Below are positions 3,520-46,607 of a stretch of DNA of 48,552 nt, one piece after another. The position numbers and the translations under genes are program-made. The notes below the pieces were generated by a model. That model worked only from the letters and a program-made list of their open reading frames with translations. It searched no databases and had not been told where the DNA came from. The stretch is taken from UHGV virus genome UHGV-0142349, one strand, 5' to 3'. Numbering within the stretch: the stretch's first letter is position 1; every line of letters begins with the position of its first letter. This DNA comes from a virus.

Positions 3520-3789
3520 ATGAAAGTACAAGACCGTGAAGTAGTAAAAAGCCTCCTGCAATACCTGACCTCAAAAAACCTGACGGGCAGCGTTGAGTTC
3601 CGTGAAGCGTTAAAACATTTCAACGTCACTACGGTTTATCGTTGGGAAAACAAACATTCTGAAAGACCGTATGTGGTGGATGTTTTTGCGCCTGATATTG
3701 AGTGCGGTTTTGAGCGCCATTCATTCAAAAAGAAACATTCCGCTGATGTTTTTTGTGAGGTTGTATGTGCGGCAGGAGATGATGAGTGA
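3520..3789 (+). CDS. hypothetical protein (cassette-driven)
   Basis: 89 aa ORF starting right after conserved leader with SD. Confidence 0.5.
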   Translation: MKVQDREVVKSLLQYLTSKNLTGSVEFREALKHFNVTTVYRWENKHSERPYVVDVFAPDIECGFERHSFKKKHSADVFCEVVCAAGDDE

Positions 3790-5394: not shown

Positions 5395-6018
5395 ATGACA
5401 AAACATCTTAATGTGGTTTCTTTACCACTTTCTGTGTTGATTGGTTATGAAAAGAACGCTCGCACACACTCCGTGGAGCAGGTAGATCAGATTGTTGCCA
5501 GCATACAGGAGTACGGATGGACTAATCCGATCCTGATAGACGAAAGCAACGTTGTAATTGCTGGTCATGGTCGAATTGCTGCGGCCACTCAGTTGGGGAT
5601 GGATGATGTTCCCTGCATTGTTCTGGAAGGGCTAACGGAGAATCAGAAGAAGGCATATCGTCTGGCCGACAACCGTATTCCGCTGAATGCTGGTTGGGAT
5701 GAAGAGTTGTTAAGCGCGGAGCTTGCAGATCTTGCGGCCGATGATTTTGCTCTGGACTCAATTGGTTTTACTCAGCGCGAACTGGATAACTTATTGAGTG
5801 CGGCGGTCTACGATGACACAGAAGGTATGGATATCCCATTTGAGAAGGATGAGGCCAAATCAGGCGTAAAAGTTCAGTACCTGTCATTTGGAGGTCATAA
5901 AATCCCGGCAACGGATGAGGAAGCGGATCGTTTTGACTGCGCGGTATCTCGTTATGTTGATGATAATGGCAGCTATATCGGATTTGTATCCGCATTGCTG
6001 GCAGGGGAGGTGTGCTGA
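5395..6018 (+). CDS. ParB-like nuclease domain protein (paralog 1)
   Basis: N-terminal ParB/Srx-like motifs (NARTHS.EQV, IAGHGRIAAA, KKAYRLADNR); paralogous to 8685..9275. Confidence 0.65.
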   Translation: MTKHLNVVSLPLSVLIGYEKNARTHSVEQVDQIVASIQEYGWTNPILIDESNVVIAGHGRIAAATQLGMDDVPCIVLEGLTENQKKAYRLADNRIPLNAGWDEELLSAELADLAADDFALDSIGFTQRELDNLLSAAVYDDTEGMDIPFEKDEAKSGVKVQYLSFGGHKIPATDEEADRFDCAVSRYVDDNGSYIGFVSALLAGEVC

Positions 6019-7391
6019 TGCTTCACCTGAATTACGACATAACGCACCTACGCGGCGCGGAATATAACCCGCGTTTTATCGGTGAGGATGATCTTGCGAG
6101 GCTGGCGGAAAGCGTCAGGGAGCTGGGGCTTGTGAAGCCATTGATAGTGCGCGGCGATTTGCTGGTGGCGGGACACCAAAGGACGAAGGCGCTACGTAAG
6201 TTGGGAATAACGCGTGCTGCGGTGTATGTGTTGCCCTGTGAAACGACGGTATACGACGAAGTACGGTTTAACCAACTGCATAACGGAACGGATTTTGACA
6301 GCGGAGATGAGCGTTGCAGGGTGTCCGGTCTGGAAGATAAGCATGGTTTTGTTCAGGTATCGGCAAGCCAGATCTCAGGCAATATGCGCGCGAAAATGGC
6401 ATATGTTCGAAAGAACATAGCGGAACTGGTTATCAAGTATGGTCCGTGGGGTGGTTGTGTTGCTACTCAGTCTGGCGAGGTTATTCACTGTGCTCAGTAT
6501 GCATTAGCAGCGAAGATGACGCGCACACCGCTAACGGTGTTTGTGATCCCTGATGTTGAGAAGGAAAAATACCAAAGTTATCTGAATAAAACTTATGGTG
6601 TATTTGAGTATTCTCATCTGGAGAAAACAACATACATCCAGACGTATGCGCAGCTTATGCGGTTGCGTAATGGTGGCAGCCTGAAATCAAACCTGTATGA
6701 GTCGTTGATCCTCCCGATCATTGCCAAGACGCCAAGAGGAATTGATTTTGGTTCGGGTCAGGGAGACTACGCGCGAATGCTCAGGGCAAAGGGATATAAC
6801 CTGCATGATCTTGAGCTTTTCCGCCGTAAGGGCGCTGGAAACACTCTGGATAGGACCGCAACAAACCGGATGATTGATACGCTGGTGGACGACTTAAAAA
6901 CGCGAGGGCGTTACGACTACGTGATTTGCGATAGCGTTTTGAACTCGGTCGATAGTGTCGAGGCTGAATGGTCCGTTCTGACGGTTCTGAAAGGGCTGTG
7001 TAAAGCTGGTGGGTCAATATTCTTTTCTGGCCGTAGCCGTGGAGAGCTGGAAACAGTCCTGAAGCAGACACAAGCGGCGAGTTCCAAAAGCCGGCTTTAT
7101 TTTATTGATCATAACGGTTTTACCGCGTTGTACCGGAAGGGGCACTGGTTTTACCAGAAGTTTCACTCTGATGAGGAAGTGAAGCAGTTGTGTCGTGTAC
7201 ATGGTTTCAGGATTAAGCGGTCAATATTCAACTGTAAGAGCTGGTATTTGCACGTCATTAACGATGATTCCCTTAGTTGGGCGAGTCTGGAGAAAGCTGT
7301 TCGTTTTGAGTTTGAGTTGCCGTTGCCTGGTGGTTCAACAATCGGACGATCTGATGATGTACTGGCGGCTTTCCGGCCGTTGATTAAGTAG
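6012..7391 (+). CDS. ParB-like N-terminal domain fused to class I SAM-dependent methyltransferase-like domain
   Basis: N-term LLVAGHQRTKALRKLG (ParB-like); C-term Rossmann motif I GIDFGSGQGDYA and DYVICDSVL acidic-loop motif. Confidence 0.6.
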   Translation: MLMLHLNYDITHLRGAEYNPRFIGEDDLARLAESVRELGLVKPLIVRGDLLVAGHQRTKALRKLGITRAAVYVLPCETTVYDEVRFNQLHNGTDFDSGDERCRVSGLEDKHGFVQVSASQISGNMRAKMAYVRKNIAELVIKYGPWGGCVATQSGEVIHCAQYALAAKMTRTPLTVFVIPDVEKEKYQSYLNKTYGVFEYSHLEKTTYIQTYAQLMRLRNGGSLKSNLYESLILPIIAKTPRGIDFGSGQGDYARMLRAKGYNLHDLELFRRKGAGNTLDRTATNRMIDTLVDDLKTRGRYDYVICDSVLNSVDSVEAEWSVLTVLKGLCKAGGSIFFSGRSRGELETVLKQTQAASSKSRLYFIDHNGFTALYRKGHWFYQKFHSDEEVKQLCRVHGFRIKRSIFNCKSWYLHVINDDSLSWASLEKAVRFEFELPLPGGSTIGRSDDVLAAFRPLIK

Positions 7392-8684: not shown

Positions 8685-9275
8685 ATGGCTCTAAAAATCG
8701 AATATTTACCAGTCGGTAAGCTGCTCAGATACGCCAAAAATTCACGGACTCATTCAGATGAGCAAGTTGAACAGTTGGTGAACAGTATCCGTGAGTTCGG
8801 TTTCACTAATCCTGTGCTGATCGATGAAAAGAATGAACTGATTGCGGGGCATGGGCGGCTTGCAGCAGCCGAAATTCTGGAAATGGATAAAGTTCCAGCG
8901 ATTCGGTTGAGTAACCTTTCTGAAAAACAGAAGAAGGCTTACAGGATTGCAGATAACAAGCTGGCCTTAAATGCTGGCTGGGATATGCAGCTTCTGGCCG
9001 AAGAAGTCAAAGCGTTAATGGATGATGATTTTGATATTGATCTGCTTGGGTTTAATGATGCAGAGCTTGACGAAATGTTAAGCGATGAACAGCCGCAGGA
9101 AGAAGACGATAATTCTTCCCCTGTTGTTCAAATTAAGTACCTGGCTATTGATAAAGAACGTATTCCCGCGACGGATATGGAAATTGCATTGTTGCTGGAT
9201 GTTTATCGTCAGTACCACGACGCGCATGAAACGCATGAGGGATTTGTTCAGTATCTTGCTAATGGTTGCAAGTAA
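8685..9275 (+). CDS. ParB-like nuclease domain protein (paralog 2)
   Basis: NSRTHSDEQVEQLV, IAGHGRLAAA, KKAYRIADNKLALNAGWD; collinear with 5395..6018 product. Confidence 0.65.
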   Translation: MALKIEYLPVGKLLRYAKNSRTHSDEQVEQLVNSIREFGFTNPVLIDEKNELIAGHGRLAAAEILEMDKVPAIRLSNLSEKQKKAYRIADNKLALNAGWDMQLLAEEVKALMDDDFDIDLLGFNDAELDEMLSDEQPQEEDDNSSPVVQIKYLAIDKERIPATDMEIALLLDVYRQYHDAHETHEGFVQYLANGCK

Positions 9276-27104: not shown

Positions 27105-29483
27105 GTGAGTAAATTATTATTTACGATGACTGACGCCGGGCGTCAGGAGCTGGTTAATGCCAACAAAACAGGAACAAATAAAGTTGAGATTGTTTCTGTT
27201 GGTTTAGGTAGTAGATATTATGTCACGTCAACTTCACAAACAAATATAACAAACGAAATAAAACGACTTACCACAATAGGTGGCAAAGTTGTTTCCCCTG
27301 ATACAATTCATGTAACAGCGAAGGATGATAGTAAAGATGAGTATGTTGTCCATACAATAGGATTGTATACGAATAAGGGTACGTTGTTTGCTGTATACTC
27401 ACAAGAACAAGCAATAATAAATAAAGCATCATCTACTATCGCTTTAATATCAAGTGATATAGCAATTAAAACTCTTGATACTAAAAATATTACATTTGGT
27501 GATATTGAGTTTATTAATCCTCCCGCGACCGAAACTGTTGTTGGGGTGGCAAGATTTGCTAATGAACAAGAAATTGATGCAGGTACAGATGATTCCCTTG
27601 CTGTTTCAGCAAAACGGCTTAAGCAAGCCATTGTGAAACATGAGCAATCACGTAATCATCCTGATGCAACTTTAACCTCAAAAGGTTTTGTTCAACTTAG
27701 CAGCGCCACCAATAGCACGTCTGAAACGCTTGCTGCGACGCCTAAGGCTGTTAAGGCAGCATATGACCTGGCTAATGGCAAATACACCGCACAGGACGCT
27801 ACCACAGCGCGAAAAGGGATTGTTCAGCTCAGTAGTGCCACCAACAGCACGTCTGAAACGCTAGCAGCAACACCAAAGGCTGTTAAGGCAGCGTATGATC
27901 TTGCGGCCGGAAAGGCTCCGTCCAATCACACGCATTCGTGGGAGCAGATAACAAATGTGCCTGTAGCTTCACTGACTGTAAGGGGAATAACTCAGCTCAG
28001 TAGTGCCACCAACAGCACGTCTGAAACACTGGCCGCGACATCGAAAGCTGTAAAGGTGGTAATGGATGAAACGAACAAGAAAGCGCCCCTGAACAGTCCG
28101 GCGCTGACCGGAACACCAACAACACCAACTGCGCCAAAAGGTACTAACAATACTCAGATCGCAAGCACGGCTTATGTTATGGCTGCGATCGCTGCCCTCG
28201 TGGACTCGTCGCCTGACGCGCTGAATACGCTGAACGAGCTGGCTGCGGCGTTGGGCAACGACCCGAATTTTGCGACCACCATGACTAACGCGCTTGCGGG
28301 TAAGCAACCGAAAGATGCCACCCTGACGGCGCTGGCCGGGCTTGCTACTACGGCAGACAGGTTTCCGTATTTTACGGGGAATGATGTCGCCAGCCTGGCA
28401 ACTCTGACAAAAGTCGGGCGGGATATTCTTGCGAAATCGACCGTTGCCGCCGTTATCGAATACCTCGGTTTACAGGAAACGGTAAACAAGGCTGGTAACG
28501 CCGTGCAAAAGACAGGCGATACCTTGTCCGGTGGACTTACTTTTGAAAACGACTCAATCCTTGCCTGGATTCGGAATACTGACTGGGCAAAGATTGGATT
28601 TAAAAATGATGCCGACAGCGACACTGATTCATACATGTGGTTTGAAACAGGCGACAACGGCAATGAATATTTCAAATGGAGAAGCAAACAAAGCACCACA
28701 ACAAAAGACCTGATGAATCTTAAATGGGATGCTTTGTATGTTCTTGTCAATGCCATTGTAAATGGCGAAGTCATATCAAAATCAGCAAACGGCCTACGTA
28801 TTGCTTATGGTAATTACGGATTCTTTATTCGTAATGATGGTTCAAATACATACTTCATGTTGACAAACTCCGGTGACAACATGGGGACTTATAACGGATT
28901 AAGGCCATTATGGATTAATAACGCTACTGGCGCTGTTTCGATGGGGCGTGGCCTTAATGTTTCAGGGGAGACACTTTCAGACCGTTTTGCTATTAACAGC
29001 AGTAATGGTATGTGGATTCAGATGCGCGATAACAACGCTATCTTTGGGAAAAATATAGTTAACACTGATAGCGCTCAGGCGTTGCTTCGCCAGAATCACG
29101 CCGACCGAAAGTTCATGATAGGTGGACTGGGGAACAAGCAATTTGGCATCTACATGATTAATAACTCAAGGACAGCCAATGGCACCGATGGTCAGGCGTA
29201 CATGGATAATAACGGGAACTGGCTTTGCGGCTCGCAAGTTATTCCCGGAAACTATGGCAATTTTGACTCCAGATATGTGAAAGATGTTCGACTTGGTTCA
29301 CAGCAATATTATGGAGTGAACAACTGGCAAACATGGAATTTCCAGTGCCCGTCAGGTCATGTATTGTCTGGTATTAATGTTCAGGATACAGGGTCCAACT
29401 CTGCCGATAATATAGCGGGCGTTTATTACAGACCCGTTCAAAAGTATATAAATGGCACCTGGTATAATGTAGCGAGCGTTTAA
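27105..29483 (+). CDS. tail fiber protein (constant N-terminal part plus invertible C-terminal part)
   Basis: 792 aa; three tandem copies of [19 protein letters not shown] motif; crossover repeat at 28462..28490 inside the gene. Confidence 0.8.
27688..28065 (+). repeat. three ~80-bp direct repeats inside tail fiber gene
   Basis: Repeated nucleotide blocks at about 27688-27772, 27820-27900, 27985-28065. Confidence 0.7.
28462..28490. repeat. left inverted repeat (crossover site) of invertible segment
   Basis: ACCTCGGTTTACAGGAAACGGTAAACAAG; reverse complement matches 31505..31533 with 2 mismatches. Confidence 0.75.
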
Positions 29484-29484
29484 T

Positions 29485-30012
29485 ATGATGCACTTAAAGA
29501 ACATAAAAGCGGGTAACGCTAAAACACTGGAACAGTATGAGTTAACAAAGAAACACGGAGTTATCTGGCTTTACTCTGAGGACGGAAAAAACTGGTATGA
29601 GGAAGTGAAAAACTTTCAGTCAGACACAATAAAGATTGTTTACGATGCAAATAATATTATTGTCGCCATCACTAAAGATGCCTCCACGCTTAACCCTGAA
29701 GGTTTTAGCGTCGTTGAGGTTCCAGATATTACAGCCAACCGCCGCGCTGATGATTCAGGAAAGTGGATGTTTAAGGATGGAGCTGTAGTTAAACGGATTT
29801 ATACGGCAGACGAACAGCAACAACAAGCCGAATCACAAAAGGCCGCATTGCTTTCCGAAGCTGAATCAGTCATCCAGCCGCTGGAACGCGCTGTCAGGCT
29901 GAATATGGCAACAGACGAGGAACGCACACGACTGGAAACATGGGAACGCTACAGTGTTCTGGTCAGCCGTGTGGATACGGCAAATCCTGAATGGCCACAA
30001 AAGCCTGAGTAA
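29485..30012 (+). CDS. tail fiber assembly protein (current orientation)
   Basis: 175 aa; paralog of 30041..30574 on opposite strand. Confidence 0.7.
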
Positions 30013-30018
30013 AAATTA

Positions 30019-30036
30019 AGGCCCGATATCGGGCCT
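30019..30036. terminator. bidirectional hairpin between convergent tail fiber assembly genes
   Basis: aggcccgatatcgggcct perfect palindrome. Confidence 0.45.
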
Positions 30037-30040
30037 TCTC

Positions 30041-30574
30041 TCATTCTGGTTGTTCGGGAAACGTTACTGGCAGGCTGGAGGTGTCTGTGGATTCGACTTT
30101 CTGCGCGTAGAGCATCCACTCGGTTAATTTTTGTTTATTCTCGTCGGAAATGATGCCCAGCCGTAGCTGTGAGTCCCATAGCTGGGTTTTATCCCTGACA
30201 AGTTGCAACAGGCTTTGCTTTTCATTCTCTGCCTGCTGCCTCTGTTCCTCCTCGGTATAAGTTCGCTTTATCACTACGCCATCTTTGAACATCCATTTAC
30301 CCGAAATATCAGCCCGGCGATTTGCTGTAATATCAGGTAATTCAACGACGCTTGCGCCTTCTGGATTAATTGCTGAAACATCCTTTTCAATACAAATAAT
30401 AACGCCGTTGTGGTCATAGACCATTTTCAACGTATCAGGCTGAAAGTTCTTTTGTTCCTCATACCAGTTTTCCCCATCCTCTGTATAAAGCCATTTGATG
30501 TTAAATTGTTTCGTTAGCTGGTATTGCTCTTTTGTTTTAGGGTTGCCAGCAGTAATATTTTTTAAGTGCATCAT
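30041..30574 (-). CDS. tail fiber assembly protein (alternative)
   Basis: 177 aa, same N-terminal MMHLKNI.AGN motif as 29485..30012 product. Confidence 0.7.
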   Translation of the reverse strand: MMHLKNITAGNPKTKEQYQLTKQFNIKWLYTEDGENWYEEQKNFQPDTLKMVYDHNGVIICIEKDVSAINPEGASVVELPDITANRRADISGKWMFKDGVVIKRTYTEEEQRQQAENEKQSLLQLVRDKTQLWDSQLRLGIISDENKQKLTEWMLYAQKVESTDTSSLPVTFPEQPE

Positions 30575-30576
30575 AA

Positions 30577-31524
30577 TTAAATACTCCCCGCGTTATACCA
30601 CGTTCCATTAATGCAATACTGAATTGGCCTTGCCTGAGTTGTATCAATTAATTCATCACGGTTTCCGTTAACTGACCCCGTAACGACATAACCTGACCTG
30701 TCAGACCAGCCGGGACCATTCCATGTCTGAACAGATGACAGACCGCCAAGACGAATACCTGTAATAAACCTTGAGTTACATTCTGCCTGCGTATATGCAC
30801 CAACATCTCCCGCTGATGGCTTACGTGTTGTGGTGTAAATTTCTGACCAGTCAGCTTCGAATCCGTAACCATCACGCGCTGAACGATAAAAAATACCGCC
30901 GTTCCTGTAATTCACACGGAACTGTACGGCAGGGCAACTCCCCGTATTCATATTGAAGTGGAGGATTAATGTCGATGCGCCACCAATATTTGCGTTATAG
31001 ACCCCGCTATTCCAGTTCCAGCCAACAGCTTTATCATTTCCGACAGTGCTTCCTGTTTGCCCTAAAGCAAATGCAGGCTGCTGGTTTTTCGTGTTGTAGT
31101 CTCGTCGCCAGCCAGGAGCATAAGCATCACCATGATTAATATAAGTGAATTGAGCGTTAGTGATTCCGCCACCGCTGGAAGTGCTCGGGGTGGTTACACG
31201 GATGGTCATGGCTCCTTTATTACCCATAACCTCAATAACGCAACCTGCAAGATGAATAGTTCCACAGCCAGTATCGGTAATAATTTTATTATTGCCGTAT
31301 GACCATGAACATTTGCACATCCAGTATGGGTGATTGAATGCCCCTTGAGAATCAAGCCATTCAATCAATTGTGCCGTTGTCCAGTTCCCTGCCCCTGTAC
31401 TAATAGCACTGTGAAAAGCACGACATGCACCAATATTTTTTGTGAAGGTATCTTTTCCAGGAATATCTGCGCCGTTCTGGTTTTTCTGTAATGCGCCAGA
31501 AGCCTTGTTTATCGTTTCCTGCAA
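30577..31524 (-). CDS. alternative tail fiber C-terminal segment
   Basis: N-terminus (M)QETINKASG parallels LQETVNKAG at crossover in the expressed fiber; likely continues into the right repeat with no own start. Confidence 0.65.
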   Translation of the reverse strand: MQETINKASGALQKNQNGADIPGKDTFTKNIGACRAFHSAISTGAGNWTTAQLIEWLDSQGAFNHPYWMCKCSWSYGNNKIITDTGCGTIHLAGCVIEVMGNKGAMTIRVTTPSTSSGGGITNAQFTYINHGDAYAPGWRRDYNTKNQQPAFALGQTGSTVGNDKAVGWNWNSGVYNANIGGASTLILHFNMNTGSCPAVQFRVNYRNGGIFYRSARDGYGFEADWSEIYTTTRKPSAGDVGAYTQAECNSRFITGIRLGGLSSVQTWNGPGWSDRSGYVVTGSVNGNRDELIDTTQARPIQYCINGTWYNAGSI

Positions 31525-31533
31525 ACCGAGGTT
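31505..31533. repeat. right inverted repeat (crossover site) of invertible segment
   Basis: CTTGTTTATCGTTTCCTGCAAACCGAGGT. Confidence 0.75.
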
Positions 31534-31605
31534 TTTGCGAATTGCCTCTGTGTCGTCTGAACGATATTTTTTCCCGCTTTTAGCAACAATCGCGGTTTAG
31601 AAAGT

Positions 31606-32160
31606 ATGCAATATGGTTATGCGAGGGTGTCAACTTTTGACCAGAATTTGGAATTACAACTGGAGGCGCTCAGGAGTTCAGGATGTGACCGGATTTTTGA
31701 AGATAAAATATCCGGTGCTAAATCAAAACGACCAGGGCTTGATAAGCTACTGAAGGTGTTACGGCCGGGCGATACGGTTATTGTCTGGAAGCTGGATCGA
31801 ATGGGGCGTTCTCTGATTCATCTTGTTGATTTACTTAACCATTTTTTATCAAACAACATTGAGTTTATTTCGATTACGGAAGGGATAAAAATTAGCACTT
31901 CAATTGGCCGCTTTGCCTACACGATGCTGAGTGCAGTCGCAGAGATGGAGCGGGAAAATATGATTGAAAGAACGCGTGCAGGATTGGCGGTGGCAAGGGC
32001 TAATGGCAGGATAGGAGGACGCCGCTCAAAATTGGCCCCAGAGCAATGGGAACAGATCGGAAGGCTTATTGCGAATGGTGTTTCACGTAAGCGGATAGCG
32101 ATTATCTTCGATGTTACCTTATCCACGCTTTACCGCAGGTTTCCGGCTGGGAATCATTGA
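31606..32160 (+). CDS. serine recombinase, DNA invertase (Gin/Hin/Pin/Cin family)
   Basis: N-terminal YARVSTFDQNLELQ with catalytic Ser; small size with C-terminal HTH; adjacent to invertible segment. Confidence 0.85.
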   Translation: MQYGYARVSTFDQNLELQLEALRSSGCDRIFEDKISGAKSKRPGLDKLLKVLRPGDTVIVWKLDRMGRSLIHLVDLLNHFLSNNIEFISITEGIKISTSIGRFAYTMLSAVAEMERENMIERTRAGLAVARANGRIGGRRSKLAPEQWEQIGRLIANGVSRKRIAIIFDVTLSTLYRRFPAGNH

Positions 32161-32341
32161 CTGGAGTTAGGCCAGTAGTATGATGCTCGCAAAACGAGAT
32201 CCAATTTAGATCCTTTTACTGGTGGATTATCGTTCGATCAGTGAGAGACTTCGTGCATGACCGAAAGTGTTGTGGTAGAGTTCTCTTAAAACCACGTAAC
32301 GTGGTTATGATTGTGGGTGTCTGGTTGGAAAGCGACCAGAT

Positions 32342-33319
32342 ATGGAAACAAAAAGCCCGCAGATAAATCTGCGGGCTTCTTGCGACATCCACGGAAAACC
32401 AACAATTAACCATGGGCGCCTCGACAACTCCCATTATACGTTGGTTTTCCGTGGACGCAAGAGCGAACATATGGATAGACCAATGCCGTCTCTACGTTCA
32501 GCTTACGTTTGTAATTTGTCGCCGGAGTTCCAGCCTCCAAAGCACCATACGCACAAGCTGCCGCTGGTGTTATCTGATGCTTTACAGCGCATTAATGGTC
32601 GTGATCTTACGTGTGAGGTTGCGTTCTACGTTAATCAACCGTCAGAGCGGAAACGCCGGATAAACGAGCATCGTCGTCGGGCGATTAATGCTGTGATTGC
32701 TGCGATTTTGCACCATGTAAACATCATTTCTAAGCGGGTTCTGGCCAGTGCTGAGGCGTTGGCTGATTTTTGCGGTCTGTCTACCGTATCCGAAGCTGGG
32801 AACAAGTCTATAACGCGCTGTACAAGGGCGTTGTCGCAACTGAAAGCGTTAGGTTTTATTGATTATGAACGTCGCTGGGATCGGGTGAATAAACAGTATT
32901 GGCCAGCGAAAATAGAGATTCGTGATCAACTGCTGGAAACCGTTGGTATTACTGAACAAGCATGGAGACGTGCGGTTAGCCAGAAACTTAATTACTTCAA
33001 TGCGAAGAATAGCGAACGGCTTAAAAAAGCGATAACGGAGGCTGATTATAAGCGTATTGTTATTCAGGAGCAGATGGAGAATGTATGGCGTCAGAGGAAG
33101 ACGGCCAGAGAGATAAAGGCAAAACAGAAAGCAGCGGAGAGAGCTGCGCGTCTTGTTCGGGAAAAGGGAGAGGCCGAACTTCGTCATCAAATCACTAGAG
33201 AGGTTAGCCAGGAATTTGCTGATGGCATGTATCCTGGAGCTGACCTTGCATATTTACGATCCCTCGTTGAGCAGCGTTATAACAGGTTAAGAAAGACTTG
33301 GAAATCACTCCAACATTAA
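32342..33319 (+). CDS. repA: plasmid replication initiator RepA (IncFII RepA1-like)
   Basis: Segment SITRCTRALSQLKALGFIDYE resembles IncFII RepA1; basic C-terminus; real start may be internal ATG 32471 downstream of leader stem-loops. Confidence 0.65.
   Translation: METKSPQINLRASCDIHGKPTINHGRLDNSHYTLVFRGRKSEHMDRPMPSLRSAYVCNLSPEFQPPKHHTHKLPLVLSDALQRINGRDLTCEVAFYVNQPSERKRRINEHRRRAINAVIAAILHHVNIISKRVLASAEALADFCGLSTVSEAGNKSITRCTRALSQLKALGFIDYERRWDRVNKQYWPAKIEIRDQLLETVGITEQAWRRAVSQKLNYFNAKNSERLKKAITEADYKRIVIQEQMENVWRQRKTAREIKAKQKAAERAARLVREKGEAELRHQITREVSQEFADGMYPGADLAYLRSLVEQRYNRLRKTWKSLQH
32346..32455 (-). ncRNA. putative CopA-like antisense RNA in repA leader
   Basis: On minus strand: 15-bp-stem hairpin (32389..32454) then hairpin 32355..32376 followed by TTTTTGTTT. 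Confidence 0.35.
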
Positions 33320-33600: not shown

Positions 33601-33950
33601 GCAGCGAGCTAAAGCTCGCGCCGGTTCGAGTCGCTACGCTCAAATATACCTCCTCCGGCACTTGCCGGAGGCATGGAGCAGCCTGATCATCCTTTTCGAA
33701 ACGGCGCGTTTCGAACTATACAAAATCAATTTATATAAGGCCGAAATAAGGCCTACGGCCGGGCTTTGCAGGAGGAAGGGGCGAGCCTTATCAATAAACG
33801 TCGATAAATACGCACACAGTAGCCATCAGAACGCGATAAAACGTAAGAAACATCATGTCCTATTAGACATAGAAAACTTGTCTTATACGCAATGTAGTAA
33901 ATTTCTATTGCCACATAGGAAAAGATTTCCTACCATCGTAGATATAATAA

Positions 33951-34250
33951 ATGGAGATGGTTATGGATAAAGATACTGTTTTAAAAATGTTGAATCCGGC
34001 TTGTTTAAAAAAAGCGGATGAATGGGAATCTCCTACATGTGGAGAAGTTCGGGCAGTCATTGGCCTGACCGGAATGAGCGGCTCGCAGTTGGCCAAAAAA
34101 CTAGGCTTAAAAGATAGTCGCAATGTTCGCAACTGGCAGATGTTAAAGGAGTCCACATCCAGATCCAGCATTCCGTATGCAGCCTGGGCGCTGCTGTGTT
34201 ACTTCGCTGGGTTAGGGTTAATCTTCATTGATAACAAAACAGATGTTTGA
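33951..34250 (+). CDS. hypothetical HTH-containing protein
   Basis: 99 aa; GLTGMSGSQLAKKLGL resembles an HTH. Confidence 0.35.
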   Translation: MEMVMDKDTVLKMLNPACLKKADEWESPTCGEVRAVIGLTGMSGSQLAKKLGLKDSRNVRNWQMLKESTSRSSIPYAAWALLCYFAGLGLIFIDNKTDV

Positions 34251-35428: not shown

Positions 35429-35443
35429 TCAGAACGAATGATA

Positions 35444-35470
35444 AGCCCCTGTTGCAAAGGGGCTTTTTTG
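35444..35470 (+). terminator. rho-independent terminator
   Basis: agcccct-gttgcaa-aggggct then TTTTTT. Confidence 0.6.
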
Positions 35471-35478
35471 TGCTCACA

Positions 35479-35591
35479 GAATTATATAATTATAGATTTA
35501 TATAAAAAGTGCTTTACATGTGGGAAAAAATTTCCTAAGGTTATACCCGAAACCGAGCGATACCCGCCCTGGTTAAACCGGAGATAACCCG
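35479..35591 (+). promoter_or_regulatory. promoter-leader cassette copy B
   Basis: Near-identical to copies at 3407 and 45065; -35 TTTACA, -10 TAAGGT, conserved leader with GGAGA SD. Confidence 0.6.
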
Positions 35592-35972
35592 ATGAGCATG
35601 ATTAAAATCCGCAAAAACGCTTTCCTTAAAATTCAAACTATCCTGGCTGGTTCTGTTGGCGTGATTTGCCGTTCTTCCTCAAGCCGCATCGATGACTGCT
35701 ACGATGATGAGTATCGTGTGTCCTCATGCGATGAGGCTTTAACCTGGCTGAAGGAGAATCAGGAACGTGCCCAGGTATATCTGGAAACAGAGAACGGCAA
35801 TCAGATGCTGCGTATTAGCGGTCGTTATGGATTTGAAACTACATTCATGGCCTATTTTAATCAGGCTTACTTTGACAAGGAGTTGGCCTGGTACACTGAT
35901 CGCATGAGCAAAAGCGAGCCAGCCCCGATTACACCGCCGAACAATAAACCATTTTTATTCCTCGTTAAGTAA
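35592..35972 (+). CDS. hypothetical protein (cassette-driven)
   Basis: 126 aa ORF. Confidence 0.5.
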   Translation: MSMIKIRKNAFLKIQTILAGSVGVICRSSSSRIDDCYDDEYRVSSCDEALTWLKENQERAQVYLETENGNQMLRISGRYGFETTFMAYFNQAYFDKELAWYTDRMSKSEPAPITPPNNKPFLFLVK

Positions 35973-37683: not shown

Positions 37684-38952
37684 TTATGGTCTGCTTTTCT
37701 GTGCCAGCTTATCAGCACATGTTTTTATCAGATCCTGTAGTGTCCTGGCTGGCAGGTTTGCATCCAGAACGCTGAGTATGCTGTTGTGATCAGCCTGGTC
37801 GACTACTTTGCCTGTCGGTGGTAGTAGCTTGAGCTGAGGATTCAGGTCCTCGTCAAAGCTGATAAGTGCTCTGGCGTTCCTGAGCAGATCAAGAAGTAAG
37901 GCTGATATCACATTTTCCTGAGTCATTGCTGGCAGACTTAGCGCCGCTTTAGTTTTCTCCGTCGCCTTGTCAAACTCTTTGATTAGTGTCTTGCGGTAGT
38001 TCGGTTCCGTTAATAGCCGATTATGCTCTGTTGCCGCGCGGATAATCGTTTTTTCTTGGTACAGTCGTTTAGCCAGATCACGCTCGTACTGTGTTTTTAA
38101 CACGCTGCTGATAGCGTTAAAGGCTTCAATGTAGGCCAGCTTGATATCTTTTACGCCTGGACCGTCGATGCTCTCCATGAGCAAGGTAAATCCGTCTTTT
38201 GTCATGCGATAGATTGTTATTTCGCGGTCGCTTCCTTCCAACGGTCGTTGCTCTTTAAAGAAATGACGCGCCGCAGCTGTGCGAGGAATGCGTAACGCAT
38301 CGATGGCCATAACGATGGAATTGTTTGTGGTGCTGAATGCCTGGGCAACATCGGCCGAGGTTGTGAGTGGCTCGTTATTGCACACCTTAATGTAAAACAT
38401 CGGTTTGGCGTTGAGCGTATCGACAACCTCACGAGCATTGTTTGGCGAGACGGTTACGGTCGCGGCCGTTTGCGCGTTCTGGTTGAAGTAGCAGTCTTCC
38501 AGCCGTTCGAACACATCCCACGCTTGGTTAGTTTCAAGCATTTTGGCGTGACGTGCAGCCCCGCGTTCTGTCCAGAGAATGAGGGAGCGAACGTTACGGG
38601 CGATTTTCACAGAGTGACTTTTAGTTACCTTGTGGTTAACAGAGTAGTTTAAAACTACTCTGTGCTCGTCGCTCTCTCTTTTAGAGGGGGCGTCATTAAC
38701 TGAATCTCTTAAAGAGTTTTTGTTCTTCACATCATTATCTTGAGTCACTTTGTGCTTTAACTCTCGAAGTTCGTTACCTTCAATTTTGAAGTAGTGCTTA
38801 CCTTCAATGAAGCGTTCCTTATTCTCATGATGATTTTGTCGAATGCGTACAGGAGATACGCCGTAAAGCTGTGCCAGTAACTCGGTAGTAATGACAGGGA
38901 TTTGGTTATGCAGGATAGGCTGTAGGGTGTTAACGGTCGGAAGCGTTTTCAT
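37684..38952 (-). CDS. antirepressor (KilA-N/ORF6N-like N-domain, Ant-like)
   Basis: 422 aa; N-terminal ITTELLAQLYGVSPVRIRQNHHENKERFIEGKHYFKIEGNELRELK resembles ORF6N/KilA-N. Confidence 0.65.
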   Translation of the reverse strand: MKTLPTVNTLQPILHNQIPVITTELLAQLYGVSPVRIRQNHHENKERFIEGKHYFKIEGNELRELKHKVTQDNDVKNKNSLRDSVNDAPSKRESDEHRVVLNYSVNHKVTKSHSVKIARNVRSLILWTERGAARHAKMLETNQAWDVFERLEDCYFNQNAQTAATVTVSPNNAREVVDTLNAKPMFYIKVCNNEPLTTSADVAQAFSTTNNSIVMAIDALRIPRTAAARHFFKEQRPLEGSDREITIYRMTKDGFTLLMESIDGPGVKDIKLAYIEAFNAISSVLKTQYERDLAKRLYQEKTIIRAATEHNRLLTEPNYRKTLIKEFDKATEKTKAALSLPAMTQENVISALLLDLLRNARALISFDEDLNPQLKLLPPTGKVVDQADHNSILSVLDANLPARTLQDLIKTCADKLAQKSRP

Positions 38953-39176: not shown

Positions 39177-39435
39177 TCGAGGCTAATCAAATGGTGGTGA
39201 GCCGTACAGGGTTAGCCTTACCGGACACAATGACGAACCGGCGCGGATTTCTCCGCCCCTGTACGACCCACCATAATTTGGGCGTAACAGTGCTCTACGC
39301 ATAAAAAAACCGCTAACGCGGTATGCGCCATCGTGTTATTCAGGAGGCTAATCCCGACCGTAGATTTTGCTACGGCTCGGAAAGTGTCCACCAATGGCGC
39401 ATTCATGTCAATACGGCGGGATTTTAACAGAGACA

Positions 39436-39498: not shown

Positions 39499-39893
39499 TT
39501 CGTGCTGATCGGATTCGCGGTCCTTTCAGCATTACGTTGTTGTATAAACAACCACGCAAGCACAAGCAGCAAATTGATTTTACTCAAAAGGTAATAATAG
39601 TCCACTATTATACATCAAAAAATTGTGGTTCTTGTTGTGTCAGCAAACTCACAGATTGTGGGTAGGTTACTGATTTTGTGAAAATAAACTGTTTTTTTCG
39701 TTTAATTTCTTTCCTATTACTAATCTTAAAATAATCGTAAAATACCTGTGGACCTTCCCGCCGATTCGCACCCGGGCACCGACTTTAGGGGAGGATTTCC
39801 TGTTGCCGTACATGCAAGCACAAGCAGCCGTGCTTGCTCTCGCGTTGTTTTCGTCGGTGGGGATGCCGTGAAACGGCCTGTAAGGGCCATACA

Positions 39894-40016
39894 ATGAAAA
39901 AATACTGTATGTGTATTTTTATCGTTGTTACTGGAGCTTTGTTTACGCCACATGGGGAGGGTTGGAAGATTACTGATAACGCTCTGAATGTGACGATAAA
40001 CATTAGCAGCAAGTAG
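39894..40016 (+). CDS. small hydrophobic protein (40 aa), candidate type I toxin-like peptide
   Basis: MKKYCMCIFIVVTGALFTPHGEGWKITDNALNVTINISSK; followed by terminator at 40022..40045. Confidence 0.3.
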   Translation: MKKYCMCIFIVVTGALFTPHGEGWKITDNALNVTINISSK

Positions 40017-40021
40017 CGATT

Positions 40022-40045
40022 AGGCCCCTTCGGGGGCCTTTTTTA
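40022..40045 (+). terminator. rho-independent terminator
   Basis: ggcccc-ttcg-ggggcc then TTTTTT. Confidence 0.65.
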
Positions 40046-40266: not shown

Positions 40267-40515
40267 TTACTTCTGGTTGTATTGAGCCTTGAGTAACTCA
40301 AAAGATTTTGTCAGCACTTCTTTCAATGACATATCCATTGAGCTGGCGAACGTTTTGTACTCGCGTTTAAATTCAGGGTCGACGTTAAACGCCATTTGTG
40401 CCCCACCTGATTTGGTTCTGGCTGGCGTTTCAGTCGGGTCGAAAACCTGCGGTTGTTCGATCGATGGCGGTACGCCTTTGCTGTTCTTCTTTGGTGGTTT
40501 TGATGGTGCGGCCAT
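40267..40515 (-). CDS. partition protein, ParG-like (ribbon-helix-helix centromere-binding)
   Basis: 82 aa, basic flexible N-terminus, directly downstream of ParA-like ATPase gene (type Ib layout). Confidence 0.5.
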   Translation of the reverse strand: MAAPSKPPKKNSKGVPPSIEQPQVFDPTETPARTKSGGAQMAFNVDPEFKREYKTFASSMDMSLKEVLTKSFELLKAQYNQK

Positions 40516-40527: not shown

Positions 40528-40563
40528 TTATATAAATCTATAAAACTATAATTATATATTACG
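40528..40563. repeat. AT-rich near-palindromic motif copy
   Basis: TTATATAAATCTATAAAACTATAATTATATATTAC. Confidence 0.5.
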
Positions 40564-41212
40564 CGGCAGTAGTCAGAGCCTCAAGCTGGTTGATAATCCC
40601 CTGAATAACGTCGTCTGCCTTTTTGCGTGGCGCAACGTATGAGCATTCAATGAGGCTTAAGCCCTTATCCTGAGCTTTGCTCAGAGCTGGCTTGTGGGGA
40701 ATGTACTTATCGACAACAAAGTATGGCGTATTAGCCAGGTACTCTTGGGCTTCAATGTAGTCGGCTTCGTTTTCAGCCGCGCCTGAGAACACCATGCAAA
40801 TTTTCTTGATTGGCACACCCTTTTTAACGATGCCATGAGCTGTGTTAACGGTGGTTTCCAGGTCATCGGTAGAGAATCTGGTTGGCAAAATAACCATATC
40901 CAGAAATTCAGAGAGCTTCGGTACTGATTCAGATGCGTAGGCACCGCCATCGACGATAACCAGGTCGTATACTTCTGATTCGATGATTTTCTGGACTTGT
41001 GATGGCGTGCCGCACGGCTGCGCCGCGATTGCAGGTTCGATATTGTTGGCCATTCTGCGTTGTACCCAACGCGTTACCGTTCCGTTAAGCACATCCATAT
41101 CGATCAGGCATACATTCCAGCCGGCCTTTGCATAAGCAACTGCTAAAGCACGGGCAATTGTTGATTTGGTTACGCCGCCTTTTCCGTTGAAAATACCTAC
41201 AGAGATAGTCAT
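40559..41212 (-). CDS. partition ATPase ParA (small ParA/ParF-like, Walker type)
   Basis: Deviant Walker A GKGGVTKST; start at ATG 41212 (SD GGAG upstream) rather than track start 41227. Confidence 0.7.
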   Translation of the reverse strand: MTISVGIFNGKGGVTKSTIARALAVAYAKAGWNVCLIDMDVLNGTVTRWVQRRMANNIEPAIAAQPCGTPSQVQKIIESEVYDLVIVDGGAYASESVPKLSEFLDMVILPTRFSTDDLETTVNTAHGIVKKGVPIKKICMVFSGAAENEADYIEAQEYLANTPYFVVDKYIPHKPALSKAQDKGLSLIECSYVAPRKKADDVIQGIINQLEALTTAA

Positions 41213-41235
41213 TTGTCGAGACTCCATGTGTTTGG

Positions 41236-41340
41236 TTATATAATTATATAAATCTATATTTATAGAACGAGGTAAGCATAACCAACTTTTTGGCGGATGA
41301 AAAGCGTTTTATATAATTATATAAATCTATAATCATATAA
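41236..41340. repeat. two direct copies of AT-rich motif upstream of parA (candidate centromere/operator)
   Basis: TTATATAATTATATAAATCTATA at 41236-41258 and 41308-41330. Confidence 0.55.
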
Positions 41341-41737: not shown

Positions 41738-41773
41738 GCGTAGCCTCTTTTATACTTTTACATGTTGTCAAAA

Positions 41774-41792
41774 CCACAAAATGTGGTTTTTT
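41774..41792. promoter_or_regulatory. palindrome AAACCACAAAATGTGGTTT (operator-like and/or bidirectional terminator)
   Basis: Perfect inverted repeat flanked by A/T runs; shares CCACA..TGTGG core with sites at 42524-42641 and 39436. Confidence 0.45.
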
Positions 41793-41829: not shown

Positions 41830-42486
41830 TCATAACCAGTTGACAACACTAACTACGCGGCCAAGAACTTTATAACGCTTAAATTCCTCGTTATTCAGAT
41901 GCTTAGTGTTCATTTCAGCATCCCTTTCGGTTGACAGCATAACAGCATTGTCACCCGGTATGACTCTACAGTGCCTCAAAACAACCAGGCCATTTCTGTC
42001 TTCAAGGGCATAGATCCCCTCATGAATCTCTGTATCGTCTGTATCAATCAGGACTTGGGAGCCAGGGGATATTGTTGGTGACATTAACTCATCGTTGCTC
42101 TGGAGAACTGACAGAGACGATGGGTTGATGTTCTTGCTTCGTAGAATCTCCTGTTCTATCGCCAGCACTGGCTTTTCTCCGGCGTGCGATGCTATGTCAT
42201 TTTTTATAGCTACAAGCCCAGGAATAACAGGAGCGTTAGTATTCTGGGGTGGGAACGGGTTATCTGTTAAGCACGCGATATAAGGCGCTGATGCTTTCAG
42301 GGCGTGCGCGATTTTCTTGATGGCAGGTATAGATGGTTGTCTTAATCCGGCCTCATAGTTCTGCAAGGTGCTTAAGCCTATTCCAGTGACTTGCTGGAGA
42401 TCTCCGGCAGTCATGCCGGATTGTTTCCGTAGAGTCTGAATGCGCAGACCTATTTCTTTCTTGATGTTCTCGTCGTTGCTTTTCAT
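41830..42486 (-). CDS. CI-like repressor (N-terminal HTH, C-terminal S24/LexA-like peptidase domain)
   Basis: HTH in the N-terminal part and an S24-like C-terminal domain; divergent from Cro-like gene. Confidence 0.75.
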   Translation of the reverse strand: MKSNDENIKKEIGLRIQTLRKQSGMTAGDLQQVTGIGLSTLQNYEAGLRQPSIPAIKKIAHALKASAPYIACLTDNPFPPQNTNAPVIPGLVAIKNDIASHAGEKPVLAIEQEILRSKNINPSSLSVLQSNDELMSPTISPGSQVLIDTDDTEIHEGIYALEDRNGLVVLRHCRVIPGDNAVMLSTERDAEMNTKHLNNEEFKRYKVLGRVVSVVNWL

Positions 42487-42523: not shown

Positions 42524-42641
42524 ACCACATTTAGTGGTTTTCACATGGTAAGACGAGAGGTGGACCACAAATAGAAGGTTATTTTTTGTTTCGCCCATTG
42601 AAAAACTCACGATATGTGGTTTTAATACCACATATCGTGGT
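42524..42641. promoter_or_regulatory. operator region with inverted-repeat sites (CCACAT-N3-GTGG type)
   Basis: ACCACATTTAGTGGT (42524-42538); CACGATATGTGG (42608-42619) and CCACATATCGTGG (42628-42640) form a larger palindrome. Confidence 0.55.
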
Positions 42642-42660
42642 TTTAACTGGAGTTCGTTAA

Positions 42661-45011: not shown

Positions 45012-45064
45012 AAGTGTCATTTTGAGCTGTTTTGATGGTGTGTAGACATCGGGAACATCGAAAA

Positions 45065-45180
45065 TCTATAAATATATAATTATAGATTTATATAAAAAGT
45101 GCTTTACAGGTGGGAAAAAATTTCCTAAGGTTATACCCGAAACCGAGCGATACCCGCCCTGGTTAAACCGGAGAAATCTG
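45065..45180 (+). promoter_or_regulatory. promoter-leader cassette copy C
   Basis: AT-rich palindrome, -35 TTTACA, -10 TAAGGT, conserved leader; diverges only in last 7 nt before ATG. Confidence 0.6.
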
Positions 45181-46248
45181 ATGAATAAACAAGTAATTAT
45201 TTCTGACTGGATCAACAACCCTAACAGCCTGTTAAGCACTGATACTGGCTACCTATTACGCCATGTTAATGGTCGTATGGTCAAAAGCGATGAGCACGAA
45301 ACCTTTTTCTTTGTTGAAGACGATGGGCGCATCTATGAGGATGGTTACTCTTATGAAGCCCAAACTGGTTGTATCCCTGCGGAGCTGGTGGACGTAACAG
45401 AAGATCTGCGCAAAGCATGGCTTGAACAGCAGCAGCGCGGAGATGATTACGTAAACACCTATCAGGAACGCCAGAACGCGCGTCTTGCCCGATATATTGC
45501 TCGTGCAGAAAAAGCCAGAAAAGAAGGTGCGGTAGCGCATAAGCGAGCGCATGACCTGTTGGATGTGATCCCGTTAGGCCAGCCGATTTTAGTTGACCAT
45601 TATAGCGCGAAAGGCCATCGCCGCCGTTTGTCTAAAGCTGATGCGTTATTCAGAAAAGCGTTTGTTGAATGCGAAAGTAAAGCATCACACTACGAGAGCA
45701 AAGCCGCAGGTGTTGGTCGTAATGGAATTTCGTCTGATGATCCTGATGCGCTATTTAAGTTGCTTCGTAAGCTGCAAGGCTGCATGAAGTCACACGTCAA
45801 AATGAAGGCCGCAAATAAGGCCATTCGCAAATACAAAAAAGACCAATTACAGCAGCTTTCTGCATTAATCGATCTCAGGTTTACAGAAAGCGAAGCCAAA
45901 GAGTTACTGGCCGGAGATTTCTGTGGGCACATCGGATTCCCTTCATACGCACTGAGCAACAATAAGGCCGAAATCAAACGACTACAGAGCCGTATTAAGG
46001 AGCTTGAATCGGTCAAGTCTGTAACAGGAGCACAGCGCGAAGAATACGACGGCTTTTCTATGGAGATAGATCCAGAGGATAACCGCATCCTGTTTTATTT
46101 CCCTGGCAAACCAGAGGCAAACATTCGTTCGCTGCTTAAATCACGCGCCTTTAAGTGGAGTCCAACCCGTAATGCATGGGTTCGTAAGATTACTCCAAAC
46201 GCCCTGGCTGATGCCCGATATCTGAAAGAATCGCTATTGAAAGCCTGA
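45181..46248 (+). CDS. hypothetical protein (cassette-driven, 355 aa)
   Basis: ORF begins right after conserved leader; no family recognised. Confidence 0.5.
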   Translation: MNKQVIISDWINNPNSLLSTDTGYLLRHVNGRMVKSDEHETFFFVEDDGRIYEDGYSYEAQTGCIPAELVDVTEDLRKAWLEQQQRGDDYVNTYQERQNARLARYIARAEKARKEGAVAHKRAHDLLDVIPLGQPILVDHYSAKGHRRRLSKADALFRKAFVECESKASHYESKAAGVGRNGISSDDPDALFKLLRKLQGCMKSHVKMKAANKAIRKYKKDQLQQLSALIDLRFTESEAKELLAGDFCGHIGFPSYALSNNKAEIKRLQSRIKELESVKSVTGAQREEYDGFSMEIDPEDNRILFYFPGKPEANIRSLLKSRAFKWSPTRNAWVRKITPNALADARYLKESLLKA

Positions 46249-46257: not shown

Positions 46258-46281
46258 TACGGCGGGATGTCTCCCGCCGTA
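46258..46281 (+). terminator. hairpin terminator
   Basis: tacggcgggatgtctcccgccgta. Confidence 0.45.
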
Positions 46282-46312
46282 TATAGAATTATATATTTAT
46301 ATAAATGTATAA
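46280..46312. repeat. AT-rich near-palindromic motif copy
   Basis: TATATAGAATTATATATTTATATAAATGTATAA. Confidence 0.5.
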
Positions 46313-46325
46313 GGACGCCTCGACA

Positions 46326-46607
46326 ATGAAACGCAAAATTATTAACCCCCAAGATGTGATTAATTTCCTGACCGATCACCCATGTTCAAAAGTGGACGTA
46401 ATCGCGGAGCACATTGGTGTGTCGCAGAACTCTATGCGTTGCAGACTGAGAAGCATGGTTGCCGAAGGACAGATAACAACCAGGAAAATAAATGGTTGCC
46501 TGTACTACTCCGCTAAACCGGAATTGCCATTTGGCATGAATCCTAACTCCATGTTGTTTAACACCTTATTAGCCAAAGTTAAGCCGTTGAGAGGGGCTGT
46601 GGCATGA
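46326..46607 (+). CDS. hypothetical protein
   Basis: Start ATG 46326 chosen over track start 46305, which lies in the AT-rich motif. Confidence 0.4.
   Translation: MKRKIINPQDVINFLTDHPCSKVDVIAEHIGVSQNSMRCRLRSMVAEGQITTRKINGCLYYSAKPELPFGMNPNSMLFNTLLAKVKPLRGAVA

Follow-up and report, generated by a model that had tools for sequence, protein, structure and literature searches.

Dispersed four-unit octamer arrays as probable sites of a ParG-like protein in an enterobacterial phage-plasmid

Why does a phage genome carry one AT-rich, near-palindromic motif at eight scattered places, two of them directly upstream of a partition gene? The question is raised by UHGV virus genome UHGV-0142349, a stretch of 48,552 bp that we call the window and that is a complete phage-plasmid of about 48.5 kb. 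The original prediction left a choice between sites bound by a ParG-type partition protein, which would couple partition to gene control, and operators of another regulator. Our sequence comparisons favor the former, because the arrays accompany parA-parG and the type of their repeat unit tracks the divergence of the ParG-like protein. We thus consider it fairly likely that the eight sites are the cognate DNA sites of an 82-aa ParG-like, putatively ribbon-helix-helix (RHH) protein, belonging to a type Ib partition system of this phage-plasmid.

All eight predicted copies are present, and each consists of four contiguous 8-bp units in one register with the consensus TTATATAA. Three of these 32-bp arrays flank parA (A and B upstream, C downstream) and five adjoin other genes:

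2255-2286, plus strand: array G, four units, after the lysis module and 139 nt upstream of tRNA-Met (2425-2500)
3402-3433: array D, at the head of promoter cassette 1
35474-35505: array E, at the head of promoter cassette 2
40528-40559, minus strand: array C, four units, between the parA stop codon (1-nt overlap) and the Shine-Dalgarno (SD) sequence of the ParG-like gene
41236-41267, minus strand: array B, promoter-proximal, four units, at about +1 to +33, starting 7 nt past the putative parA -10 element
41309-41340, minus strand: array A, promoter-distal, with the units TTATATAA TTATATAA ATCTATAA TCATATAA on the plus strand
45064-45095: array F, at the head of promoter cassette 3
46281-46312, plus strand: array H, four units, directly past a terminator-like hairpin and 13 nt before ATG 46326 of a MarR-like 93-aa gene

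The unit is itself a palindrome, T-T-A/C-T followed by A-T/G-A-A, in which T4, A5, and A7 are nearly invariant; the octamers of the 41236 array, for example, are TTATATAA TTATATAA ATCTATAT TTATAGAA, and those of the 45064 array ATCTATAA ATATATAA TTATAGAT TTATATAA. The two words by which the motif had been described fared unequally: the self-complementary core TATAATTATA is found exactly at seven of the eight sites and nowhere else in the window, whereas the 10-mer TAAATCTATA or its complement is exact at only five. The copy at 46280 lacks both exact words but has the same architecture as the others.

The arrays stand out from the rest of the window. TATA-N4-TATA occurs 27 times in the window, each time within the eight sites, and TATA-N4-TATA-N4-TATA with at most one mismatch gives 28 matches, all of them within the sites, against 0.10 expected from dinucleotide shuffles. 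With a four-unit position weight matrix (PWM), the sites score 37.7-44.6 bits, compared with 9.2 for the runner-up place in the window and a maximum of 18.3 bits in 200 Markov-2 randomisations. Because the original prediction had named chance occurrence in AT-rich DNA as its refutation, we also used an AT-rich null, in which a leave-one-out PWM with the array composition as background was applied to dinucleotide shuffles of each site; the observed score was reached by none of 1000 shuffles at any site. Six further 32-nt stretches of equal AT-richness lack the motif, and a model-free detector of 8-bp self-periodicity returned exactly the eight sites, with no ninth in the window. The arrays are more than 90% A+T and rich in TpA steps, and the dispersed motif is real and far beyond chance.

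The two direct copies that had been noted upstream of parA lie 73 bp apart and enclose a candidate promoter. On the parA strand, the terminator hairpin of a 124-aa gene is directly followed by array A, 5 nt, TTTTCA, 17 nt, TATGCT, 7 nt, and array B, with 23 nt including GGAG between array B and the parA start codon:

41275-41303, minus strand: putative parA promoter between arrays A and B, read from the sequence only, with -35 TTTTCA (41303-41298), a 17-nt spacer, and -10 TATGCT (41280-41275)
40559-41212, minus strand: parA, encoding 217 aa if read from the ATG at 41212, which an SD sequence precedes; the mechanical open reading frame (ORF; 222 aa) starts at 41227, 15 nt earlier
40267-40515, minus strand: ParG-like gene for a candidate centromere-binding protein of 82 aa

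The later start codon agrees with the annotation of parA in relatives, which begins at the second ATG (PGAP, 654-nt ParA). Array A is conserved in the Salmonella plasmid pAR-0407-1 (locus L002) and in 12 further related loci, and a -35/N17/-10 arrangement recurs at the equivalent place between two arrays in L002, L003, L004-L007, L009, and L021. Intergenic arrays equivalent to array C are found in L002, L004, L006, L007, L008, and L009.

The gene content of this locus has several features of a type Ib partition system. ParA is a small Walker-type ATPase within the size range of that type (about 200-230 aa), has a deviant Walker A motif (GKGGVTKST), and lacks an N-terminal DNA-binding domain. 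It matches Pfam CbiA (1.7e-12), ParA, and MipZ as well as phrog_164 (ParA-like); as a search against PDB sequences gave only a weak ArsA match, we do not assign it to the ParF or delta subfamily. The 82-aa ORF lies 43 nt past parA and encodes a small protein that is not a helix-turn-helix (HTH) ParB, while the ParB/Srx-domain ORFs of the window (5395-7391 and 8685-9275) are not adjacent to parA. Finally, short-repeat arrays lie at and near the par promoter, a layout that recurs with element-specific units in 10 other loci.

In the 82-aa product (MAAPSKPPKKNSKGVPP...ARTKSGGAQMAFNVDPEFKREYKTFASSMDMSLKEVLTKSFELLKAQYNQK), residues 1-40 form a basic, disordered tail at the N-terminus, after which come a putative beta-strand (QMAFNVD) and helices at 47-59 and 64-80; the tail residue R33 is invariant among close family members, and an AF2 model shows residues 1-46 as disordered, followed by two helices. 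The relatives retrieved by a word-indexed search with the single protein were all at least 80% identical to it, while exhaustive HMMER and profile searches reached further, yielding 55 representatives and 501 proteins at E<=1e-5, respectively. Nearly all family members are 75-105 aa long, with a basic Pro/Lys-rich tail followed by LNFxVxxEFxREFKxFAxxxDMSMxELLxxxFELYK. Among 47 of them, 16 match RHH_10 and 12 match Antitox_RHH in Pfam, while the Pfam ParG family (PF09274) is touched by one member (E 0.018) and not by the window protein. In an hhalign comparison of the family profile with TP228 ParG (sequence verified against 1P94), the RHH domains align in register with a probability of 49.6% and an E-value of 1.7e-4. 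The evidence is consistent with, if weak for, a protein that is ParG-like in build and not a member of the Pfam ParG family. The gene is labelled "hypothetical protein" throughout, and no functional annotation was found in Pfam, PHROG, or the source records examined.

Conservation of the arrays exceeds that of their surroundings. In pAR-0407-1, whose par region is 76% identical to that of the window, all eight arrays occupy orthologous places; they are 66-97% identical (mostly about 90%), compared with 41-77% for the flanks, several upstream flanks being unalignable. Across 14 related sequences (the window and 13 loci), an array is present at every orthologous position covered. The 38 distinct 32-mers in these sequences keep T4 in 145 of 152 cases, A5 in 147, and A7 in 151, and they vary only symmetrically, with A/C at position 3 accompanied by T/G at position 6 and with T/A at both position 1 and position 8. 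A two-fold symmetric protein site under selection would be expected to vary in this way. As a separate observation, the E. coli and Salmonella elements share 95% identity in ParA and 93% in the ParG-like protein, compared with 60-76% in the neighboring cI, 124-aa, and 164-aa proteins, reflecting either unusually strong constraint on the par module or its recent exchange.

More distant relatives combine the same gene pair with arrays of their own. Homologues 36-44% identical to the window protein are encoded directly after a ParA of about 213 aa in four metagenomic phage contigs (L004-L007), and a ParG-like gene also directly follows a small parA in L003, L008, L009, and L021. At the homologue loci, 8-bp-periodic arrays bracket a -35/N17/-10 arrangement upstream of parA, often with another array between parA and the small gene; their units are AACGAAAT in L004 and L007, GTTATTCC in L005, and TTnTTTAA in L006. 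The conjugative cfr plasmid L008 (NZ_CP037908.1) encodes another ParA/ParG-like pair, accompanied by 8-bp arrays of its own with TATA-type units. Since arrays surround parA-parG in unrelated phage and plasmid backbones, the 8-bp arrays travel with this gene pair. ParA and the ParG-like protein are also the sole proteins present in all array-bearing loci; the 124-aa, cI, and MarR-like proteins are not. Next to its ParA/ParG-like pair, plasmid L008 also carries the phage-plasmid's RelE/HTH module and a cassette array with its -35 element, cut off by IS26, which is evidence of exchange between phage-plasmids and resistance plasmids; the pair and these features involve positions 6001-6048 and 3584-4560 of L008.

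The unit type changes together with the ParG-like protein. Serratia pJSRIV006_2, S. marcescens p2, and one IMG/VR contig share the cI-parA-parG module and the promoter cassettes of the window, their ParG-like protein being 38-46% identical. Their par-locus units are of the ATTTAAAT/ATTTAAAG type, and the arrays before the cassettes and other genes use those same units. For the window, L002, and L003, probes taken from the par locus agree with the dispersed sites of their own element in 22-24 of 24 positions, compared with 19-21 for sites in the other clade. The own-locus match in L009 is lower, at 20-21 of 24.

Away from the par locus, the association of three copies with promoter cassettes, also part of the original prediction, is borne out: arrays D, E, and F head a 121-nt repeat and occupy positions -43 to -74 of three duplicated promoters. 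Each cassette reads array, 7 nt, TTTACA, a 17-nt spacer with the palindrome TGGGAAA-N3-TTTCCTA, TAAGGT or TATGGT, a leader of about 45 nt, GGAG, and ATG:

3402-3522, plus strand: cassette 1, with array D (3402-3433), -35 TTTACA (3441-3446), palindrome (3449-3465), -10 TATGGT (3464-3469), and ATG at 3520
35474-35594, plus strand: cassette 2, with array E (35474-35505), -35 (35513-35518), palindrome (35521-35537), -10 TAAGGT (35536-35541), and ATG at 35592
45064-45183, plus strand: cassette 3, with array F (45064-45095), -35 (45103-45108), palindrome (45111-45127), -10 (45126-45131), and ATG at 45181

The first unit of array D holds the stop codon of an MT-A70 methyltransferase gene, array E sits just past a terminator (35443-35465) and precedes the gene of a 126-aa protein of unknown function, and the gene of cassette 3 encodes a DUF3560/primase-like protein of 355 aa. 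The 17-bp palindrome in the -35/-10 spacer (TRGGAAA-N3-TTTCCTA) gives eight strand-matches in the window against 0.79 expected and is probably the operator of a second regulator. A fourth promoter (TTGCCA-N17-TACCAT), upstream of a 99-aa ORF without a Pfam match (33951-34250), contains a perfect copy of the palindrome (33916-33932) and no array; thus, the array is a separable module. The Serratia relatives have an equivalent TAGGA-N7-TCCTA palindrome, including a fourth copy without an array. The conserved cassette leaders (3470-3522, 35542-35594, and 45132-45183) contain a small hairpin just before the SD sequence, whose outer pairs co-vary by clade (AACC...GGTT in E. coli/Salmonella vs GGCC...GGCC in Serratia; two compensatory pairs in nine sequences).

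The two remaining arrays lie outside the cassettes. Array G, to which no convincing sigma-70 promoter could be assigned, is 97% identical in L002, where the upstream flank is unrelated. An inverted repeat with 34-nt arms of 85% complementarity (2332-2414) lies downstream of array G and immediately upstream of tRNA-Met; the ORF at 2299-2742 overlaps tRNA-Met, is unannotated in relatives, and is probably spurious. Downstream of array H, the leader of the MarR-like gene (AAGGACGCCTCGACAATG) resembles that of parA (GGAGTCTCGACAAATG). Both share an SD-to-start string, CTCGACAA(A)TG (41210-41227 on the minus strand at parA; 46313-46328 at the MarR-like gene), which is kept at parA in the Salmonella element and three Serratia-clade elements and may be a translational operator or a duplicated leader.

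In DNA architecture, the arrays resemble the sites of MetJ, namely two to five contiguous palindromic 8-bp met boxes that each bind one RHH dimer, with 8 bp from center to center and cooperative contacts. MetJ differs in being a chromosomal metabolic repressor with a co-repressor, its unit is AGACGTCT, it has no partition role, and homology is not shown. The analogy with N15 drawn in the original prediction applies to the dispersed layout and no further: N15 centromere sites are reportedly scattered genome-wide near phage promoters, and the four dispersed sopC inverted repeats of its SopAB system are, like the window's arrays, not clustered at the partition operon of a phage-plasmid. N15 is type Ia: its sites are single 16-bp palindromes, its large HTH ParB (SopB) spreads from the site, and its ParA binds DNA through the N-terminus and does the autoregulation. 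The window shows none of these features and has an 82-aa RHH-like candidate and four-unit tandem arrays in place of an HTH ParB and single dispersed inverted repeats. PMC7205306 mentions N15 sites under the name "IR1-...".

Because the proteins are of type Ib, with a probable RHH fold, the ParG/parH-OF system of TP228 and the omega/parS system of pSM19035 are closer comparisons. The TP228 sites parH and OF are composed of 4-bp boxes with 4-bp AT-rich spacers, each box binding a single ParG dimer. Both sites serve as operator as well as centromere, and about half of the centromere activity is retained with four boxes (PMC3130281). TP228 ParF-ParG shares with the window a small ParA-type ATPase and, after it, a small protein whose N-terminal tail is flexible and basic and whose C-terminal domain is RHH-like, as well as 8-bp-periodic arrays upstream of the operon, the TP228 boxes occurring in direct and inverted orientation. 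However, there is no significant sequence similarity beyond the hhalign result given above; the box is TATA/TAGA within a palindromic octamer in the window and ACTC in TP228; the window has four units at each of eight sites genome-wide, whereas TP228 has 20 boxes in one block; and one array of the window lies between the two par genes.

Plasmid pSM19035 has six parS sites, which overlap the copS, delta, and omega promoters, and its ParA ATPase is activated only if four or more repeats are contiguous (PMC9499535); omega is described as activating or repressing (PMC4627068). There, too, several contiguous short-repeat arrays lie at promoters outside the binder's own operon, the binder being an RHH centromere-binding protein, and one protein serves segregation and gene control, as may be the case in the window. 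Every array of the window has four repeats, the functional minimum on pSM19035, and the eight separate arrays of the window lie, much as on pSM19035 (PMC9499535), at putative promoters of different operons or close to genes: four end 5-7 nt upstream of a -35 element, array B covers about +1 to +33, and the remaining three are gene-proximal. Several differences set the systems apart. pSM19035 is a Firmicute plasmid with non-palindromic WATCACW heptads, 7-10 per site, whereas the window has 8-bp TTATATAA units and its protein has no sequence match to omega or in PDB; the pSM19035 sites overlap promoters, whereas the window's arrays end upstream of the -35 or lie downstream of the -10; and pSM19035 controls copy-control and toxin-antitoxin genes, compared with phage-plasmid genes here.

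We propose that one dimer of the ParG-like protein would bind each palindromic unit, four dimers coating 32 bp cooperatively, in the manner of MetJ on tandem 8-bp met boxes, ParG on 4-bp boxes with 4-bp spacers, and omega on heptads. Arrays A (about -38 to -70) and B, which bracket the parA promoter, would mediate autorepression, and arrays A, B, and C (12 units within 813 bp) would form the main centromere, at which the basic tail of the protein would stimulate the ParA ATPase; these two roles are proposed because of the TP228 and pSM19035 precedents. The five remote arrays would be extra loading sites. The three at -43 to -74, an UP-element/class-I position, would tie transcription to the level of free ParG-like protein, more probably by repression, through blocking of the region of the UP element and the C-terminal domain of the alpha subunit (alpha-CTD), than by activation, of which omega offers an example, and tRNA-Met and the MarR-like gene would probably be tied to it likewise. 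As remote arrays lie at these promoter positions and beside two further genes, those genes would be responsive to the free protein. From the placement of its sites, one ParG-like protein is probably shared by plasmid segregation and gene control.

A further step, which we put forward tentatively and hold to be rather doubtful, is that the ParG-like protein doubles as a genome-copy sensor of the phage-plasmid. Each genome copy would bring 32 binding units in eight arrays to a fixed, autoregulated protein pool, so that the pool would be titrated upon over-replication or lytic replication. Titration would free the three identical cassettes (with the primase-like gene and an operon leading to packaging genes), tRNA-Met, and the MarR-like gene. 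To our knowledge, such a role in a lifestyle switch has not been described for RHH partition proteins in Enterobacteria.

Several points weigh against the arrays being ParG-like sites. The RHH assignment of the 82-aa protein rests on weak profile and fold evidence: the window protein has no Pfam match and is "function unknown" in PHROG, phmmer against PDB sequences returned nothing, Foldseek with a single-sequence model against PDB returned noise only, and the monomer model lacks the beta-strand. A generic sigma-70 scan called neither the parA nor the cassette promoters, whose positions are consensus guesses; its only calls were two plus-strand sites inside arrays, pointing away from parA. Because the scan missed them, the promoter assignments rest on the recurrence of -35/N17/-10 at the same place in many elements. 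The co-variation of unit and protein amounts to two or three independent clade contrasts only, and concerted evolution of the repeated cassettes could contribute to it. Searches with the neighboring 164-aa protein found 12 loci in viral contigs, all still with parA-parG, and none in genome contigs; no relative with a swapped par system was among them, and as no natural par swap is available, ParG and other regulators are not separable this way. Lastly, A/T-only arrays that lie at -43 to -74 and are rich in TpA steps would also serve as UP elements and as targets of H-NS, Fis, or IHF.

One alternative is that the arrays are operators of another regulator encoded by the element, such as the 124-aa protein between cI and parA, the MarR-like 93-aa protein, or a cassette gene product, their presence at parA reflecting co-regulation only. 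A small ORF of unknown function does lie between cI and parA in the window, L002, L003, L004, L007, and L009, and array H directly precedes a putative winged helix-turn-helix (wHTH) regulator. The cassettes, moreover, clearly carry a second operator-like palindrome, and thus more than one regulator probably acts there. However, the 124-aa and MarR-like proteins were detectable only in the E. coli/Salmonella clade, and both the P2-like L006 and the conjugative plasmid L008 have parA-parG arrays without either protein. Arrays also lie between parA and parG, where no promoter is expected, and tandem palindromic 8-bp units suit an RHH protein better than an HTH or wHTH dimer. We regard this explanation as unlikely.

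It also seems improbable that the arrays are mainly protein-independent or host-factor elements, that is, UP elements, curved DNA, or nucleation sites for silencing by H-NS, Fis, or IHF. Their A+T content and TpA steps fit such a role, and in four cases (arrays A, D, E, and F) 5-7 nt separate the array from a -35 element downstream, which is the position of an UP element (-40 to -60), the last unit plus AAA resembling a proximal UP subsite. AT-richness does not explain the strict 8-bp phasing, the near-invariant T4, A5, and A7, or the exact number of four units per site, and arrays B, C, G, and H are not at an UP-element position: a host-factor role leaves unexplained why arrays lie at +1 to +33 of parA, between parA and parG, and 13 nt before an ATG. 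Nor does it account for the coordinated switch to ATTTAAAT/G in the Serratia clade and to G/C-containing AACGAAAT and GTTATTCC elsewhere, since the RNA polymerase alpha subunit and nucleoid proteins of the hosts are essentially the same. Both the strict phasing and the clade-specific units argue in favor of a specific protein. The arrays may nevertheless have a dual role, as ParG-like sites and as host-factor elements.

There is, in our view, only a small chance that all eight arrays are bound by the ParG-like protein as centromere sites only, without regulatory effect, and that their proximity to promoters is a by-product of cassette duplication. In TP228, centromere activity is only partial with four boxes and gains from additional ones, pSM19035 has six parS sites, and duplication of the whole 121-nt cassette could alone have spread three arrays. 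Yet the array is separable from the cassette promoter, as the palindrome promoter at 33916 shows, arrays G and H lie outside cassettes and are kept at gene-proximal places in Salmonella, the spacing between array and -35 is maintained, and known RHH partition systems do regulate the promoters beside which they bind. Roles as iterons, origin, pac, or cos can be rejected, as the sites are scattered, lie close to genes, and accompany the par module in plasmids that are not phages.

The element that carries the arrays combines P2-like tail genes, terminase, portal, and lysis genes with a RelE/HTH toxin-antitoxin pair and a C4/isrK-type antirepressor control region. PLSDB holds 62 near-identical plasmids, mostly from E. 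coli and of 47-50 kb, all non-mobilizable, and three near-identical Yersinia phages are vB_YpM_39/41/44. Of 5,426 complete E. coli genomes, 71 have the par region, which is nearly always located on a plasmid; one such plasmid is that of the reference strain ATCC 25922 (NZ_CP009073). The family also occurs in Salmonella, Klebsiella, E. fergusonii, and E. albertii, and the infective Yersinia phages have been isolated. Membership in the pSLy3 phage-plasmid group was considered and rejected, pSLy3 being part of the SSU5 supergroup; our literature search found no paper on the family or on vB_YpM_39/41/44. Further features of the window are:

32342-33319: RepA initiator
41830-42486, minus strand: cI-like HTH-S24 repressor, followed on the same strand by the 124-aa ORF, parA, and the 82-aa ORF
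39190-39278 (minus), 39303-39376 (minus), 37684-38952 (minus), and 39748-40044 (plus): features of the Rfam control module
41765-41790, 42598-42644, 32283-32308, and 5395-5420: ACCAC-N5/6-GTGGT repeats

In the control module, an ORF6N-Rha antirepressor gene is preceded by isrK and a C4 antisense RNA, both identified by Rfam, which is the arrangement of a P1/P7 immI-type module; Rfam also identifies a ryfA RNA on the opposite strand. The ACCAC-N5/6-GTGGT repeats flank the cI-like repressor gene and the divergent early promoter, and another copy immediately precedes repA. As probable cI operators, these repeats would link immunity with replication. Nested inverted repeats at 28459-31535 (29479-29831 vs 30228-30580; 28459-28510 vs 31484-31535) enclose oppositely oriented tail-fibre/assembly ORFs and adjoin a recombinase-sized ORF (31606-32160), so that this region looks like an invertible host-range segment of the Gin/Cin type.

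Type Ib partition, RHH proteins as global regulators, and dispersed centromeres in phage-plasmid N15 are known already. New are a protein family without functional annotation in the sources examined, met-box-like arrays of palindromic octamers, and eight four-unit sites split over a phage genome and combined with duplicated promoter cassettes. As the sites are short, the protein has only 82 aa, and natural specificity variants exist, the system is readily testable. This family of phage-plasmids is common yet essentially uncharacterised. If the proposed reading of the arrays as ParG-like sites is true, the centromere and incompatibility determinant of these elements would be defined, and a large family of ParG-like adaptors with fast-diversifying DNA specificities (TTATATAA, ATTTAAAT, AACGAAAT, GTTATTCC, and others) would be named. 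It would also provide a second example, from a Gram-negative setting, in which promoters throughout a genome, here that of a phage, are connected to an RHH partition protein. Should the protein in addition act as a copy sensor, a type Ib centromere-binding protein would be a component of the switch by which these elements decide between plasmid and phage lifestyles.

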